DNA of 64,000 nucleotides from Octopus vulgaris (lineage: Eukaryota), in assembly GCA_951406725.2 (NCBI GenBank), contig OX597828.1, positions 57,970,001 to 58,034,000 of the forward strand, read 5' to 3'. Below the pieces are notes generated by a model. That model did not search any database. It had not been told where the DNA came from and worked only from the letters and a program-made list of their open reading frames with translations. Both the position numbers and the translations under genes were made by a program. Position 1 is the stretch's first letter; each line of letters begins with the position of its first letter. Below, one piece after another: positions 10,215 through 53,470 of the stretch.

Positions 10215-10505
10215 TATTAGGTTGGCAACTAACTTCGCGCCGTTTTTTTTTTAACTTTAATTTTTTAAAAGGTTTAATAAAACATAACAGCTAATTAATC
10301 AATAACGCATTCACCCTTGTTGTTTACAACTTCTTCCCAGCGTTCAACAAGACTTTCAACACCTCGTTGGTAGAAATCACCCGATTTCGACTCAAAAAAT
10401 TGATCCAGTCAAGCTCACAATTCTGCATCAGTATTGAACGAAACTCCGCGCATAGCATTTGAAAGAGTTGGAAATCCGTTGGCGCCAAATCAGGAGAATA
10501 TGGCA
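10215..10505 (-). mobile_element. Mariner transposon 3' remnant
   Basis: PYSPDLAPTDFQLF motif on the minus strand; TIR-like tattaggttggcaactaa at 10215. Confidence 0.8.
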
Positions 10506-10507
10506 CT

Positions 10508-10895
10508 GTGGTAACACTGCGCAAATATCTCCTCCGGGTAAAACCACTAATAGAAGAGAATATGACCAAAGACTGCGTGTACTCCATCCCATGCAGCTGT
10601 GGTAGGTTATACAAAGGCGAAACATATCACACACACACCCTCAAAATAAGGGTAGACGAGCATCGCAAAGCTGTGACACGGGGAAATATTGATAAATCGG
10701 GTATAACTGATCATGTATGGAAAAATGCGGGATGAAGTTAAAATAATAGAGAGAGAACACCACTGGAAAATGCAAAAGCTAAAAGAAACAGCGCCTATGC
10801 TAGGACACAATAACCTCCTAAGCAAACCGAGCGCAGATATGAGTAGCATATGGGAACCGGTATTAAGGAAGGATAGGAAAATATTAGATTTATAA
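10508..10895 (+). mobile_element. Penelope-like retroelement GIY-YIG endonuclease fragment (frameshifted)
   Basis: DCVYSIPCSCGRLYKGET...LKIRVDEHRK...SGITDHVW, then VKIIEREHHWKMQKLKET. Matches the PLE pattern VYxIxCxxCxxxYIGET..L..R..EH. A hammerhead follows at 11015. Confidence 0.85.
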
Positions 10896-40614: not shown

Positions 40615-40680
<66 letters not shown>

Positions 40681-40684
<4 letters not shown>

Positions 40685-42412
40685 AAAGGGCTTAGTAAAA
40701 TAAATTACTTTGCCGCATACTGAACTCATTAGAAATAGCAGCTAAAAAACTTTTTTAAAGCTATTTCTAATACTTAAAGAAAATCTCTCTCATATAGTGC
40801 TTGCTTAACTCAACTCACGAAAGTTTGGGGTAAGGACATCAAAAAATCAAATGCAAAGGTTATTTGAGAACGTGCGTTTCAAGATTAGTCAACACGACAC
40901 TTCTATCATCAGCTCAGAAACTCCTTGGTTTGGATTCAAATCCAAACCAAGGAGTTTCTGAGCTGATGATAGAAGTGTCGTGTTGACTAATCTTGAAACG
41001 TACGTTCTCAAATAACCTTTGCATTTGATTTTTTGATGTCCTTACCCCCAAACTTTCGTGAGTTGAGTTAAGCAAGCACTATATGAGAGAGATTTTCTTT
41101 AAGTATTAGAAATAGCTTTAAAAAAGTTTTTTAGCTGCTATTTCTAATGAGTTCAGTATGCGGCAAAGTAATTTATTTTACTAAGCCCTTTTATATAATG
41201 TAATAATTTGAATTCGCCTTAAATGGTCCCTTTGCATACTGAACACTTGGTGAAATTGATTAATAATTAATTAATTTTACCCTCAATTGTTGAAATTATA
41301 ATTAATCTCCCTCTAATTAATGCTTCGGATTTTACCGAAATAAGCATAGTGTTTGATGATTTTAACCCACGCTGGTGGAAAGGGGAGAACAGAAATTCTT
41401 CGCTTGCATATTTGAGTTTGTTGGCACTGTTAGTTGCGAGCAGATCTTCGAAAGCGATGAGAAGCCGAAAAGGTATGCTCTTACTTTCAGTGTTTTCAAA
41501 TCCAAACCAAGGAGTTTCCGAGCTGATGATAGAAGTGTCGTGTTGACTAATCTTGAAACGTACGTTCTCAAATAACCTTTGCATTTGATTTTTTGATGTC
41601 CTTACCCCCAAACTTTCGTGAGTTGAGTTAAGCAAGCACTATATGAGAGAGATTTTCTTTAAGTATTAGAAATAGCTTTAAAAAAGTTTTTTAGCTGCTA
41701 TTTCTAATGAGTTCAGTATGCGGCAAAGTAATTTATTTTACTAAGCCCTTTTATATAATGTAATAATTTGAATTCGCCTTAAATGGTCCCTTTGCATACT
41801 GAACACTTGGTGAAATTGATTAATAATTAATTAATTTTACCCTCAATTGTTGAAATTATAATTAATCTCCCTCTAATTAATGCTTCGGATTTTACCGAAA
41901 TAAGCATAGTGTTTGATGATTTTAACCCACGCTGGTGGAAAGGGGAGAACAGAAATTCTTCGCTTGCATATTTGAGTTTGTTGGCACTGTTAGTTGCGAG
42001 CAGATCTTCGAAAGCGATGAGAAGCCGAAAAGGTATGCTCTTACTTTCAGTGTTTTCAAATCCAAACCAAGGAGTTTCCGAGCTGATGATAGAAGTGTCG
42101 TGTTGACTAATCTTGAAACGTACGTTCTCAAATAACCTTTGCATTTGATTTTTTGATGTCCTTACCCCCAAACTTTCGTGAGTTGAGTTAAGCAAGCACT
42201 ATATGAGAGAGATTTTCTTTAAGTATTAGAAATAGCTTTAAAAAAGTTTTTTAGCTGCTATTTCTAATGAGTTCAGTATGCGGCAAAGTAATTTATTTTA
42301 CTAAGCCCTTTTATATAATGTAATAATTTGAATTCGCCTTAAATGGTCCCTTTGCATACTGAACACTTGGTGAAATTGATTAATAATTAATTAATTTTAC
42401 CCTCAATTGTTG

Positions 42413-42420
<8 letters not shown>
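40681..42420 (+). mobile_element. Non-autonomous PLE-like element: about 255-bp inverted arm plus about 2.6 tandem copies of a 560-nt unit, inserted in (TA)n
   Basis: Identical ORFs recur at a 560-nt offset (41267/41827). 40681-40936 is the reverse complement of about 40940-41195. One hammerhead per unit. Confidence 0.85.
40959..41010 (+). ncRNA. Hammerhead in the 560-nt repeat (further copies 41519-41570 and 42079-42130; inverted copy 40865-40916)
   Basis: UGAG-CUGAUGA-UAGA...UCUU-GAAA-CGUACG-UU-CUCA. Confidence 0.75.
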
Positions 42421-46579: not shown

Positions 46580-46818
46580 GACCTTTTGTTATTGACAAGA
46601 TGAAAGGCGATTTGAAAACGCAGCAGATACTTGATGCCGAAACGGTCAATGAATACAAGTTTTTAGTAAGCGTAATAGACCGCGGAATCCCTCGATACAC
46701 AGTTACAACTTCTGTTCATGTTATTGTTAAAGATATCAATGATAATCCTCCACAATTCAGCTCTCCATTTGGGTATAAATCATATATTCTTGAAGGATTT
46801 GAAGGCGTTTTACCAATT
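46580..46818 (+). CDS. Cadherin exon D (239 nt, phase 1->0)
   Basis: attgaag|GA ... ATT|gtaagt. PFVIDKMKGDLKT...LDAE...VIDRGIP...VKDINDNPPQF...ILEG. Confidence 0.92.
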
Positions 46819-48278
46819 GTAAGTAAAAGTTCATGAAATGTTTTAAAATTTCATATTCTTCTCTGAGAATACCTCTATGTTTATAAGCGTATTATGTGTC
46901 GGTTTTCGTAATCTGAGTTTAAGCCTAGTTAGATGAGCAGGCAGAATTGTTACCGAGCAAAATGCTCAACCACATTTCTTTCGACATTTTATGTTCTGAA
47001 TTTAAATGCCACCGTGGTGGAGTTTGCTTTTTACCCTTTCGATCACCATAAAATAAGTATTAGTTGAGCACTAGAGTCGATACAGTTGGCTTCATCCTCT
47101 TTTCAAAATCGATGGCTTTGAGCCAAAATTTGAGTCATTTAATTCCAGTTCGTTTTTCGTCAGACTTATGACAAAGGCGTTCCAAACATAACAATCTCGA
47201 TTTATTTTGAGACAATGTATCCAAAATTGCAATATACCATATATCCTTTCTTTAAACTGATAATAAGTAGTTTGAAAGAAATTTTGTTATAACTGAAAAT
47301 AAAGGCTGAACAGAACACACGTGACTAGCTTGCCTCACATCCACGAACCAACCAAAACGCGTCTACGTCATGGCTCAGCTTATTATCTTTCCTTTGTTGA
47401 TGCGTGGATGCAAGGTCTGTTCTATAATGGCTTTTCTTCAGTTAGATGGATAGATAGATAGATATATAGATAATTAGATAGACATATATATATGTTCTCA
47501 TAGCTTGCTTACGAACCACATGGTTCTGGGTTCAGTCCCACTGCGTGGCACCTTGAGCAAGTGTCTTCTACTATAGCCCCGGGTCGACCAAAGCCTTGTG
47601 AGTGGATTTGGTAGACGGAAACTGAAAGAAGCCCGTCGTATATATATATGTATGTGTCTGTATATGTTTGTGTGTCTGTGTTTGCCCCCCCCCCCCACAA
47701 CATCGCTTGACAGCCGATGCTGGTGTGTTTACGTCTCCGTAACTTAGCGGTTCGGCAAAAGAGACCGATAGACTAAGTCTTACAAGGAATAAGTCCTGGG
47801 GTCGATTTGCTCGACTAAAGGCGGTGCTCCAGCATGGCCACAGTCAAATGACTAAAACAAGTAAAAGAGTAAAAAAAAAGTATGAATATTTAGTAGAGAA
47901 ACAACTGAATGACGTAGTAAACACATCCTCAAACATAAACACTCAGTAAGACCAAAACTTTGTGAACGAAGATACAGAACGCCTTGTTCGATTGTTGAGC
48001 ATCTCTGAGTCACTGCAACATGATCGTTCATACATTGACATCTCAATTTATTGCTGGTTTCTTACTCTTTTGTCTTTGTATCTGCATCCAATCCGTTATC
48101 TCGGTGTACAAAACATGTAGAAATATGTTGAATTGCATTTTTATCCAATATTTGCCAACGGGAAGCAAAACGAACATAAAGTAAATCAAAATTCCATTGC
48201 GTCAATGAATTACGACTATCATGATCGCACATCATCTAAAGGTAGATGCTTTCCTGTGACGAAATACAACAGTCATCA

Positions 48279-48924
48279 GTATATCCAGGTTCGAATCCAC
48301 CAAAATGCATTAAGAATGAATTTGCTGATTTCTATAAACAACATCCAGTATTCTTGTTAGATTCATTGATCCTGGGGAGCTTTTACTGAAGAGACATACA
48401 ATAAGGCCGAAACAGCGCAGTGTTTCAAAGTTTCCAGACGTATATCCAGGTTCGAATCCACCAAAATGCATTAAGAATGAATTTGCTGATTTCTATAAAC
48501 AACATCCAGTATTCTTGTTAGATTCATTGATCCTGGGGAGCTTTTACTGAAGAGACATACAATAAGGCCGAAACAGCGCAGTGTTTCAAAGTTTCCAGAC
48601 GTATATCCAGGTTCGAATCCACCAAAATGCATTAAGAATGAATTTGCTGATTTCTATAAACAACATCCAGTATTCTTGTTAGATTCATTGATCCTGGGGA
48701 GCTTTTACTGAAGAGACATACAATAAGGCCGAAACAGCGCAGTATTTCAAAGTTTCCAGACGTATATCCAGGTTCGAATCCACCAAAATGCATTAAGAAT
48801 GAATTTGCTGATTTCTATAAACAACATCCAGTATTCTTGTTAGATTCATTGATCCTGGGGAGCTTTTACTGAAGAGACATACAATAAGGTCGAAACAGCG
48901 CAGTGTTTCAAAGTTTCCAGACGT
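48279..48924 (+). repeat. Tandem array, 4 x 161 nt
   Basis: atatccaggttcgaatcc starts at 48281, 48442, 48603 and 48764; copies are nearly identical. Confidence 0.95.
48855..48920 (+). ncRNA. Type I hammerhead in the 161-nt tandem array (best copy; others start at 48372, 48533, 48694)
   Basis: CUGGGGAGCUUUUA-CUGAAGA-GAC..GUC-GAAA-CA GCGCAG UG-UU-UCAAAGUUUCCAG. Confidence 0.7.
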
Positions 48925-50761
48925 CAATGAATTGCGTGTGCTATAAGCACACATTGTCTAAAGGGAAATGTTTTCCGATGACATCAGCATAATCACGTTC
49001 GAATCTGCCAGAACGTGTTAAGAATGAATAGATAAATTGAAATAATAAAAATTTAATTGAATAATGATAATTGACAAAGTTGATGGTGTACTTGTTTAAG
49101 TGCATTACTGTTTTTAGTTATGTATTTCTAAATTCTGAGGTTGTATTCTACCTAACAAGAAAACAAGAACCGTGATTTTTTTCCTTCCTTTCATCTATAG
49201 ATAAAATGATTAAAATTATAAATTAGATTCAAATAAAAAAAAAATTATTTGAATAAAATGTATTCTTTACTGTGTATTTGGAACAATGTAACATAGCAAT
49301 TAAAATACAACGCTAAACCTGTTCAATGTTTTCTTGGTCTCTGCAGGATTTCTTTGCTAAATAACATTAGCATTTATCGAAATTAATTTAAATGCAATAA
49401 TTTTTCAATCGATTATCTACCAAACAAAACATATAGCTTCAACATTTTCTTTTAATTTTGTTGAAGAAATATTTTATTCAACTTTGAAACGAATGAAGAT
49501 TTTGCACTTTAAAAGAACTAACCCCGGATTTACTAGCTCATAAATGGAATTCAGAGCGTATACAGCAATACCACAGAAACGACAAGCCGTCAGCCAGCCA
49601 GCCTGATCGAAACATCAATGTGGATATCAATTTCTAGTCTGAGTATAATATATACGAACAAGTTGTTTGCAAGAAGCGTAGATTTTGTGATAACTGATCT
49701 GTGTAGGCCTAAGCTAACCACAGGTATGAAGATGGCCACGTTGCACCTGTAGATTCCCAATGCATTCCTCCCCTACTCATATCGAGGACCTTGACTTTTT
49801 CGGCTCCCTCCAAATACACATTGAAAACGACGTAAATAAATTTCACGTCCAATGAATCGCCCTGTAAAGAAAGTTCCAGATGTGGTTTGACAACTGATTG
49901 TATGGTCGATGTCTATCAGCCTATCATATGTACTCGACGATAACAATTCGCCCAATTTGCATTTGTAAGACTTAACCGAACAGAGACCGCGGTTTGATTA
50001 TCAAAATATGTATATTACGGGTCCCACGATAAACATTAAATTTTAAAATGTGAATGATGTCTTAATTCATTAGCAAATTGGCAATACAGACTGATATGCT
50101 ATGATTAGAAACCAAATTCAGACTTTCGAACTTTGCTCAAGAAGACACTTAATCTCCTCGCTGTTACTTTCAAACATACACATGCTACTAACGCATTCGT
50201 ATACATACCTACATACACAGATACATACATACACATAATGTTTTTATGCATATATAGTTTCATACAATTTAGATGAACAATAAACATGCGAGAGCAATAA
50301 AAATAGATCGCTTAACTAGGCACACGTTAAATTTCATTAGAAGAGAAATTTGATGGCCTAAAGTGACTCAGGGAATTACATTCTTTCATTTTCCAATGAA
50401 ATAAAACAGAGATATATCAAAGGACATTTCAAACTTTGAAAGACACAATAGACATTCGTCTTCACAATGCAATATTAAGTGTAAACATCCTACGGCCATT
50501 AATACGTCATTTAGTAACCACTGCTGACTGCATGTTTACGTATTCTGTGGAAAACAATTTTGCCTTCCGGAGCCCAACCTACTTAACATTTCTTACAAAG
50601 AAAATAATCGCACATATATGATGTAAATGAAGCGTAAGATACTGCTTGCCGAGAGCTTGCCTTTATTCTGTTTTGCTTTCAGAACAATACAATACGTCGA
50701 TCTGAAATGATTGAGTTCGTATTAATACTTTTGTCGTTGTTGTTTTTTTTATTACTTGCAG

Positions 50762-50935
50762 CAACCTGAACTTACTACATCAGATGCTGATATAATGGAA
50801 GAAAACCAAATAGTAACATATAGCCTAGAAGGAAGTGAAAGCGAGGGCTTTGTGATCGATTCTAGAACAGGTGATGTCTCTGTTAAACCTGGACATCATC
50901 TTGATTGTGAATATCGTAGTAGCTACTTACTAAAC
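50762..50935 (+). CDS. Cadherin exon E (174 nt, phase 0->0; paralogue of exon A)
   Basis: cttgcag|CAA ... AAC|gtaagt. QPELTTSDAD...FVIDSRTGDVSV...LDCEYRSSYLLN. Confidence 0.92.
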
Positions 50936-52151
50936 GTAAGTTTCTTTTTAACAATTATTTCAATTTTTTTCCAGTTAAGCTAATCGTTTAACGAAGCCCT
51001 TGTATAAAATCCTAAACGTTCCCTAAAACCTGGTTGACTTTTAAGGTTTAATACGTATGGTGGGTTTTGTAATATAGTTATCTTCATAGAGAAATATTCA
51101 ATATCATTTCCATTTATATTCTTATGTTAGATTTATGTTACTGAAAAGTAGACGGAATGTGGAATTTTTTCTCTTTCCACCCACTCCCCATATCTGTCAA
51201 TCTTTTCTGCCATACCAACCTGGAGAAGGCAACAGGAAAATGATCAGTCTATCTGTTCTTTTATATTCTGGAATGGAATAACAAATGCCAATACATTACC
51301 TGAGACTGAGTTAAACCATCTGCAGTGGTCCTCGCACTTACTAAGAAGCTTCTCTAGTCTAGATCTCCCTGGGTCGCAGAAAAGGCAAGGCCAGTTTGAG
51401 GGAGAAAACTAGCTGCAGGGGTTTCCATGTAAGTCAGTAATGCTAAACTCAAATGCCTTAGTGAATCCCAACTCCATTTGTTCGTTGACTCATTGTTCGT
51501 TTCATCTTCTCTTGCACACAAGCATTGTTTTTTGTTCTTTTTCGGTGGGGGGTAGGGTTGTTTTTTATATTGTGTTCTGGCGCCTGACCCACCGACCAGT
51601 AGTTTGCATGATTACCAGTAGTAAATCTTGTAATAAGTGAAAAGATGATATGACAGAGAGATATTACATGGAACTCGAGCCCACATAGGATAGATAAAGG
51701 GCTGTAAGAATATTGGGTGCATTGCTAGTACACAGTATTGATTTCAGTTTCAACTGCCAGTATAGCATTCAAAGAAAAAGACTTCTCCAAGGTGTCTTAC
51801 TCTCGACGCACATCATGAAGTTAAATTCTTCAGTGGTGACCTCCATAGGTTATGCAACTCACAATCCCTGTAGCTCCCAACTATGTTTTCTGTTATTTGG
51901 GGCTGCATTCGAATTAAGCTTTATTTTTTGTTTTCATTTATTTATTTGTATTATTTGTTTTGTTTATATTTTTGCTGTTTTTTCTTTTTAAAAATTTTGT
52001 TTCGATATATTTTTTTCCTGCCTCAAAGTTATGGATGATTGGAGTGCCCTTTTAATTATGAATTCCTCTACAGCAAATAGAAATGGTAACTTTTGTGTGT
52101 CGGTCAGGTAAATTGAAACCTGCAGGTAATAATGGGGGAAAACCAAATAGT

Positions 52152-53030
52152 TGCAGGTGGTATTAAAATGCACCCGGACTAGTTCTGTAGCGCGCAAACA
52201 GATGACGGCACATGGTTACGTGCGCAATGAGAGCTATCAGTGACCTTCATGAGACAGTGTACCGGGTGGTATTGCTGTGCTTACTTCGCAAGTTGTGAAA
52301 TTTGTGTTTTTGTGATCACGTGTATAATGTAGTCCCCGATTTTATTCATGGACAGGATGTTGAAACAAAAAGCCAACGTGAAATCTGTGTTAAACTTGGG
52401 AAGTCTGCTACAGAGAAGTTGAGTATGTTTCGGAAAGCTTATGGGGACGAGTCAATGTCTCCAGTGGCATGGGCGCTTCAAAAACGGATGAACCTCTCTG
52501 GAAGACGATGAGAGATCTGGATGATCTGCCACGAACGTCATCTCCGGAAATGTGGTATTGTGCATCGGGAATTCACCCTCTGTGCCAGACTATCAATTGA
52601 GAGTTCTACTGAGGCATTTTGAAGCATTTGAGGGACTGGGTCTGTGGAGCGCGAAGAATTGGTTTCTTCACGACGAAAAGGCACCCTGTCACCGAGTTCT
52701 CCTCACTCGTGAGTTTCTCGCAAATAACAACATGGTATCGCTTCCGCACTAGCCCTATACGCCAGACTTAGCACCTGCGGACTTCCCTTTCTTCCCAAGA
52801 TGAAAATGCAGTTCAAAGGTCGCCGTTTTAACACCACTGTCGAGATCAAGAATGAATTGCAGAAGGTCCTCGACTCGCTTACGGAAAACGACTTCCAGGC
52901 CGGATTCCAAAAGTGGCCGGAACGCTGGGACCGGGGACTATTTCGAAGGATATGATGTTAAAACTTAAAGTAAATAAGTTATTTTTCATTAAACATAACT
53001 AGTCCGGGAACTTTTTGATACCACCTTGTA
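52152..53030 (+). mobile_element. Internally deleted mariner element with both TIRs
   Basis: CVKLGKSATE...AYGDE; WFLHDEKAPCH...LPH.PYTPDLAPADF. Imperfect TIRs caggtggtattaaaatgcacccggactagtt / aactagtccgggaactttttgataccaccttgta. Confidence 0.9.
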
Positions 53031-53226
53031 TTCTGCTCACGAATATAACATACGTTGTGTTATAAATTTTAAACTGTTCACCTCGTTGTTAACAACACTT
53101 CGTCCTAACTTCAGCATTTCGTCTCTATTCTAAAGTTTTGAGATCCTATATTTTAATGAGATCACACTGCTGACAAAATTCGAGGAATTAGAAAAATAAA
53201 TCCTTTTATTTTATTCATACTTCTAG

Positions 53227-53470
53227 ATTACAGCTAAAAATAAAAGGCAAATGGCAACTAGCAGTTTGGAAATAACAGTTCAAGACTTAAATGATCATAC
53301 ACCAGAGTTTCTCGATGAATACGAATTCCATGTTGACCCCAAAACATCAGTTGGCAAAGTTATAGGCCAGGTTAATGCTGTTGATGGAGATCAGTCAGCA
53401 AAAAACAATCAATTTGGTTTCTTTCTTCAAAATGGCAGCTGGGACAAATTTTCAGTTGACACCCAAACAG
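53227..53470 (+). CDS. Cadherin exon F (244 nt, phase 0->1; paralogue of exon B)
   Basis: ttctag|ATT ... ACAG|gtaagt. ITAKNK...ITVQDLNDHTPEF...VNAVDGD...NNQFGFFLQNGSWDKFSVDTQTG. Confidence 0.93.

Follow-up and report, generated by a model that had tools for sequence, protein, structure and literature searches.

A four-copy hammerhead array in a cadherin intron of Octopus vulgaris probably arose by local duplication within an old, decayed retrozyme-like repeat

Introduction

A 64,000-nucleotide stretch of the Octopus vulgaris genome (assembly GCA_951406725.2, contig OX597828.1, positions 57,970,001 to 58,034,000 of the forward strand), referred to here in its whole length as the window, carries in an intron of a cadherin-repeat gene four near-identical, head-to-tail units of 161 nucleotides (nt), each of which contains a hammerhead ribozyme motif. 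A tandem repeat with a hammerhead in two consecutive units is the criterion for an active retrozyme in a recent study (10.64898/2026.07.22.740005). The locus raises the question of whether an array of this kind was made through RNA and can release RNA, or whether it was made by duplication of DNA. The initial annotation of the window derived the array from an older monomer of ~239 nt by retrozyme-like re-amplification and proposed the release of unit-length linear or circular RNAs. We conclude that the locus is very probably a decayed 1.4-unit insertion of an old 337-nt repeat, likely Penelope-mobilised, within which a 161-nt segment was later duplicated in place and from which little or no circular RNA is predicted.

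Results

The array is restricted to one locus and varies in copy number

Tandem Repeats Finder detected 4.0 copies of the 161-nt unit at 48279-48924 with 99% matches, in agreement with the four head-to-tail units (48279-48922) annotated initially. The units differ from one another at two sites only: copy 4 has T instead of C at position 129, and copy 3 has A instead of G at position 144. The tandem junction has three genome matches at up to 2 mismatches, all in this array (control, 0), and no close dispersed copy of the 161-mer was found among the best 40 of 544 candidates. Contigs from several animals revealed alleles of different length. In X5 (organism C), a single contig goes from 48278 to 48762 and is exactly 483 nt shorter, which corresponds to one copy, and a contig of X6 extends from the left flank as far as 48422 uninterrupted at 48308, where a loop would force a break, likewise indicating one copy. 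X1 and X3 (organism A, two studies) each yielded a 191-nt loop contig containing the junction, with no differing letters. With the observed variants included, the depth ratio in X3, possibly the assembled individual, was 3.46 versus 3.43 predicted for four copies, and that in X1 was 1.64 versus 1.62 for two. In X4 (organism B), contigs break at 48308 and 48895, the unit has roughly double the depth of the flanks and the stem II site reads T; this animal likely holds two copies, both with stem II intact, the junction being deduced from the bin depth. Among animals, the copy series is therefore 1 (X5, X6), ~2 (X1, X4; depth and breaks) and 4 (X3).

The unit lacks phases 139-233 of the parent repeat described below (phases are counted from the predicted cleavage site), where both preferred 3' end clusters of that family lie almost entirely. 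Because the junction is unique, single-copy orthologs exist and the unit is devoid of the inferred reverse-transcription starts, the array likely represents a local DNA duplication, by slippage or unequal crossover, and not retrozyme re-amplification. The proposal of a re-amplified sub-unit accordingly survives in part: a 161-nt piece was indeed amplified later, but the retrozyme-like route is not supported, given the unique junction, the single-copy alleles and the absent start points.

As an internal control, a young hammerhead-like repeat of 560 nt, also located in the window, displays an RNA-mobilised pattern, unlike the 161-mer, with 204 genome matches from the best 40 of 1317 candidates, the full-length ones listed being 98-99% identical. 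It occupies 40679-42420, where ~2.65 units in tandem are accompanied by a 258-nt arm in inverted orientation, with a TA microsatellite at both sides and CUGAUGA at 40963, 41523 and 42083 (+) and 40912 (-). As a candidate for an active retrozyme, this repeat ranks above the 161-nt array; its hammerhead was assigned by visual inspection and differs from the fold predicted to have minimum energy.

The parent is a dispersed 337-nt repeat family

Origin from an older, retrozyme-kind hammerhead repeat, as initially suggested, was confirmed by the discovery of a dispersed family, but the monomer size had to be revised. Alignment of 19 loci showed circularly permuted homology that extends beyond the proposed 239-nt unit on either side, and the family period is 337 nt; 239 equals 337 less 95 and 3 nt that are missing at this locus only. 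The annotated relationship between the array flanks, diverged homologues at an offset of 722, was recovered at 71% identity over 75 nt ungapped (67% over 122 in another alignment). The search for other copies in the octopus genome, called for by the annotation, returned 56 matches from the best 40 of 544 candidates, those outside the window being 67-87% identical (long ones, 67-79%). A 20-nt motif of the family matched the genome 540 times within 2 mismatches, versus 2 for the control, and, given that the motif occurs within 2 mismatches in 18 of 86 sampled units, the family may comprise very roughly 2,600 units. A 33-nt consensus core has only 3 exact genome matches. Arms longer than 150 nt (n = 86) share 73-87% identity with the consensus (median 82%), and all core bases are intact in 22 of 84 hammerheads, only two of which preserve the 11 flanking pairs as well. 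An arm that exceeds one unit in length is present in 42 of the 79 loci. The family is an old, dispersed, hammerhead-bearing repeat.

The consensus hammerhead forms all 13 core-flanking pairs tested and has a GUC triplet, and the predicted circular fold of the consensus monomer (42% guanine-cytosine, GC) reaches -106 kcal/mol (z -5.2 versus 100 shuffles). In 28 hammerhead rows, 84% of cells are paired, compared with 28-47% when the pairing is slid. The Rfam model RF00163 scored 22.7 and 21.8 bits on two family loci, under its cut-off of 34, and the other Rfam matches at the level of E-values were microsatellite noise. The family combines the properties by which retrozymes are recognized, namely a non-coding monomer of 150-450 bp, a single type I hammerhead, GC below 45% and both tandem and dispersed occurrence, and is likely a non-long-terminal-repeat (non-LTR) retrozyme that is now extinct. 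No description of it was found among the papers listed by literature searches on octopus with hammerhead/Penelope or retrozyme, which did not cover Repbase or Dfam.

Family loci carry insertion scars of the Penelope type

Of 96 family loci, 79, including the window, remained after subtraction of 15 same-place and 2 segmental duplicates. Two pairs of family loci (L002/L005 and L060/L061) have near-identical arms and are apparently segmental duplicates. Arm pairs in the 79 loci are back-to-back (divergent) in 39 cases and convergent in none. The 3' ends of the arms (n = 133) fall mostly at phases 131-160 (57 ends) and 181-200 (42 ends), forming clusters near phases 150 and 192, ~40 nt apart, with 5' ends scattered; 22 of the 39 arm pairs contain one end of each class (hand count), and the flanks at arm ends are, by eye, AT-rich. 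PMC8557442 lists, as features of Penelope-like elements (PLEs), partial tandems, a 5'-truncated copy that is inverted at the 5' end and, at one end, a tail of 30-40 bp, and, according to PMC11167929, a PLE protein cuts and extends both strands at AT-rich DNA and begins reverse transcription inside the RNA. Since the arm geometry and the fixed 3' ends match these features, the family was, by analogy, likely mobilised Penelope-style.

Two more specific scenarios were considered. Insertion might start at the ribozyme cut because the cleaved RNA is the template, and the arm in the window does start at phase 1; this may be a coincidence, given that only 4 of 133 5' ends lie at phases 1-10 and 3 at phases 331-337, with no family-wide enrichment at the predicted cut. 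Similarly, the 95-nt gap was examined as a template switch at a preferred end, but among 11 large same-strand phase jumps only 2 end in a preferred cluster, both being this locus counted twice.

The array hammerheads are damaged

On the + strand, each unit presents CUGAAGA, a 3-bp stem II, GAAA, a short stem III and a GUU triplet (AUU in unit 3), that is, one hammerhead per unit in the sense of the cadherin gene, just as annotated. The letters of a type I core (CUGANGA, GAAA, an NUH triplet and an open stem I) are present in copies 1, 2 and 4 and in the family consensus; the commonest triplet in the family is GUC. The initial observation that a perfect stem II (GAC/GUC) and an extended stem I are confined to the last copy also holds, with 10 bp of distal stem I pairing possible for copy 4 only. 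Additional defects had escaped that reading: the second pair of stem I, G-C in the family, is a U-C mismatch in all four copies, and stem III of copy 3 has lost, through the G>A change, the pair that we take to be C15.2-G16.2 in hammerhead numbering. Contig ends in X4 and X6 at 48906 and the equivalent 48423 point to a segregating variant at or beside core residue U16.1. The core-flanking pairs formed number 12 of 13 in copy 4, 11 of 13 in copies 1-2 and 10 of 13 in copy 3, against 13 of 13 in the consensus; the consecutive copies 1-2 have intact core letters and one mismatch each in stems I and II. The family model assigns 92.5 bits to copy 4, which was in its training set, versus 61-63.5 to the others, and nothing in the window matches Rfam at the gathering level.

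Constraining the ensemble to the hammerhead costs 4.6 kcal/mol in the consensus, 7.8 in copy 4, 12.7 in copies 1-2 and 18.2 in copy 3, energies that rank the copies and cannot prove inactivity, because even the consensus is off its minimum-energy fold. As a circle, the 161-nt unit is predicted to have no excess self-pairing (z +1.4, versus -5.2 for the 337-mer). GUU belongs to the cleavable NUH sites in PMC3138052, and copy 4 may therefore cut weakly. As two working ribozymes are needed and copies 1-3 have 2-3 broken core-flanking pairs each, release of unit-length RNA is predicted to be unlikely.

These data also bear on the most serious alternative, whereby the duplication produced a working two-ribozyme cassette that cuts the cadherin pre-mRNA or the excised intron and frees a 161-nt linear or circular RNA in copy-number-dependent amounts. 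In its favour are the fully intact cores of copies 1, 2 and 4, the cleavable GUU triplet, the sense orientation within a transcribed intron, the likely two-copy X4 allele with T in stem II of both copies and, in the predicted fold, an alternative distal helix that the start of the following unit supplies to copies 1-3. We nevertheless consider it improbable in view of the U-C mismatch beside the core in every copy, the A-C mismatch in the middle of the 3-bp stem II in copies 1-3 and the broken stem III of copy 3, all the more so as the constrained-fold cost exceeds that of the consensus in every copy, the unit lacks excess self-pairing and the expansion brought new damaging changes. Moreover, 8 of 9 predicted Xenopus retrozyme dimers remained uncleaved in vitro according to 10.64898/2026.07.22.740005. 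A bolder version, in which a fossil retrozyme was re-minted by DNA duplication into a shorter two-ribozyme cassette excising the 161-nt RNA, possibly circular, from the cadherin intron in a copy-number-dependent manner, appears marginally less probable again; if true, the 1/2/4-copy alleles would be a natural snapshot of the birth of a retrozyme monomer and its subsequent silencing by stem mutations.

Still harder to sustain is an origin of the 161-nt unit as a novel retrozyme monomer that multiplied via RNA (rolling-circle cDNA) and entered the locus in multimeric form. The near-identical tandem copies with a hammerhead in each, the GC content of 38% and a size near the 150-450 bp range given for animal retrozymes in PMC7229834 are compatible with such a monomer. 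Yet the old insertion adjoins the array without interruption on either side, no dispersed copy was seen in the genome searches above, the array shows neither an inverted arm nor a new end, and the segment bearing the preferred 3' ends is absent from the unit; the single-copy orthologs and the unique junction already largely refute this origin. Finally, an assembly artefact is the least credible explanation of the four copies: assembly of short near-perfect tandem arrays can go wrong and no aligned record spans the whole array, but the junction contigs of X1 and X3 come from two studies without a differing letter and the X3 depth fits four copies with two variants, even if X3 is possibly the individual that was assembled.

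Layout of the insertion and of the host intron

Relative to the monomer, the window copy, a 1.4-unit insertion with no inverted arm, runs through phases 1-138, jumps 95 nt to phase 234, continues through the hammerhead and stops at phase 144 (Table 1). The last 45 nt of the upstream partial monomer (48279-48323) double as the start of array unit 1. The gap may have arisen by deletion or by a template switch during insertion. The end at phase 144 falls inside a preferred 3' end cluster of the family, with AT-rich DNA beyond. A 45-nt segment (48157-48201), reaching 16 nt into the start of the old insertion, is missing from X5 and X6 and likely from one X4 haplotype.

Table 1. Coordinates of the insertion, the array and the host intron in the window
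Feature	Position	Strand	Details and basis
Host intron (GT..AG) of cadherin-repeat gene	46819..50761	+	X16 joint 46818 to 50762; splice donor and acceptor visible in the window sequence
Upstream partial monomer of the 337-nt family, phases 1-138 from the predicted cleavage site	48186..48323	+	76% to consensus over 135 aligned nt; nhmmer E 2.4e-25
Old junction without family phases 139-233 (95 nt)	48320..48325	+	Alignment to consensus dimer; present in the X5 single-copy allele
Array unit 1	48279..48439	+	Core CUGAAGA at 48386; stem II A-C mismatch, stem I U-C mismatch; predicted cut after 48424
Array unit 2	48440..48600	+	Core CUGAAGA at 48547; no difference from unit 1; predicted cut after 48585
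Array unit 3	48601..48761	+	Core CUGAAGA at 48708; extra G>A at 48744, stem III broken
Array unit 4, ancestral-type copy	48762..48922	+	Core CUGAAGA at 48869; stem II intact (T at 48890); stem I U-C mismatch at 48867/48909; GUU triplet 48905-48907
New tandem junction, 2-nt GT microhomology	48428..48453, repeated at 48589 and 48750	+	Sequence reading
3' remainder of downstream monomer, ends at phase 144	48923..49035	+	91% to consensus over 110 aligned nt; end mapping

Run X16 (a related organism, RNA by guess) also joins 50935 to 53227, and Pfam Cadherin was found in 4 of the 6 exon open reading frames (ORFs) tested, on the + strand, 2 of them above the curated cut-off. The X16 joints, the matching splice sites and the cadherin ORFs on the same strand together place the array in sense inside the intron. 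Two RNA-by-guess runs with the same species label leave 48328-48809 uncovered, but hardly cover the host exons either and are uninformative on expression. Within the intron, X16 depth is 31-80 at 48810-49291, which may reflect intronic RNA or another family copy. The intron further contains, at 47520-47875, a very high-copy repeat resembling a short interspersed nuclear element, whose summed contig depth lies, for each of the four runs aligned, between hundreds of thousands and millions.

Elsewhere in the window, additional CUGANGA...GAAA motifs lie at 689 (+), 11020 (+), 12776 (-), 13672 (+) and 24813 (+). The first three belong to one family and presumably resemble the pseudo-LTR (pLTR) ends of Penelope elements. 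An ORF fragment at 10463-10735 (+) looks, by eye, like the GIY-YIG endonuclease of a PLE and has no Pfam match at E 0.01, and a short inverted duplication at 1382 (-) and 1436 (+) carries CUGAUGA in both orientations.

Discussion

The history that we favour, that of an old insertion duplicated in place, would have begun with a 337-nt RNA that cut itself by its type I hammerhead and that a Penelope-like reverse transcriptase/endonuclease copied into AT-rich DNA from one of two fixed internal points ~40 nt apart. One such copy would have settled in sense in the cadherin intron, where it is found minus 95 nt and with 9-24% drift from the consensus. Other animals carry single-copy alleles, and the new junction occurs at this locus alone. 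Contig breaks and depth suggest a path from one copy to two with stem II intact, after which the upstream copy acquired T>C, the array grew to 3+1 and copy 3 acquired G>A. At most copy 4 would retain weak cleavage, unit-length RNA would be unlikely to form, and a 161-nt RNA would be without both start points required for re-insertion.

Several observations weigh against this history. The consensus hammerhead itself departs from the predicted minimum-energy fold (P 6e-4), and covariation in the 28 hammerhead rows does not exceed that of shuffles, so that support for the fold comes from consensus complementarity and not from compensatory change; missing covariation is, as expected, what neutral decay from a structured ancestor would give. 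The core is better kept than the rest of the family (91% versus 83% base-matched), partly owing to the method by which loci were found. The copy numbers of X1 and X4 derive from contig depth and break points and not from array-spanning reads. Lastly, among 100 of the 169 flank ORFs, no autonomous Penelope partner sharing sequence with the family was seen, the one reverse transcriptase match lying ~630 nt from an arm, and no ORF was continuous with an arm; PLE ends were not surveyed across the genome. The link to Penelope is consequently a geometric one.

The family and the array resemble different known systems. Metazoan non-LTR retrozymes, with repeats of 350-390 bp in mussel and 330/350 bp in axolotl (Cervera and de la Pena 2020, PMC7229834), share with the 337-nt family a non-coding monomer, one type I hammerhead of canonical size, 42% GC, a strongly self-paired predicted circle and dispersal as monomers to short tandems; size, GC and architecture match the non-LTR retrozymes of PMC7229834 and 10.64898/2026.07.22.740005. 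The family differs in being old, at a median of 82% to its consensus, and the 161-nt array differs from such retrozymes in that it was duplicated locally as DNA and has a junction not shared with the family. With PLEs and their non-autonomous derivatives, as described in PMC8557442, PMC11167929 and by Li, Clavereau and Pollet (10.64898/2026.07.22.740005), the family has in common partial tandems and a hammerhead, as well as a 5'-truncated arm in inverted orientation next to the 5' end, a pair of fixed 3' ends ~40 nt apart (the tail) and AT-rich ends; unlike PLEs, it has no ORF and no identified sequence-sharing autonomous partner, and the window copy lacks the inverted arm. The array is most similar to a minisatellite or variable number tandem repeat born in a transposon remnant, being a single locus of near-identical units with 2-nt junction microhomology, a copy number of 1, 2 or 4 among animals and variants that spread through adjacent units. 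Satellite birth by tandem duplication and unequal crossover is discussed in 10.64898/2026.07.22.740005. The distinction is that the array unit happens to contain a whole hammerhead core and thereby passes screens for tandem repeats with hammerheads.

The locus documents a tandem array with one hammerhead per unit that came about when DNA was duplicated in place, as the single-copy orthologs prove, and screens that apply the two-consecutive-unit criterion could wrongly score loci of this kind. At the same time, the 1/2/4-copy alleles offer a means of testing the effect of an intronic hammerhead on the host transcript. The old, apparently extinct retrozyme family with Penelope-type scars adds modestly to the known set, and the occurrence of such scars in an old family implies that this route of mobilisation ran in the lineage long before the young families.

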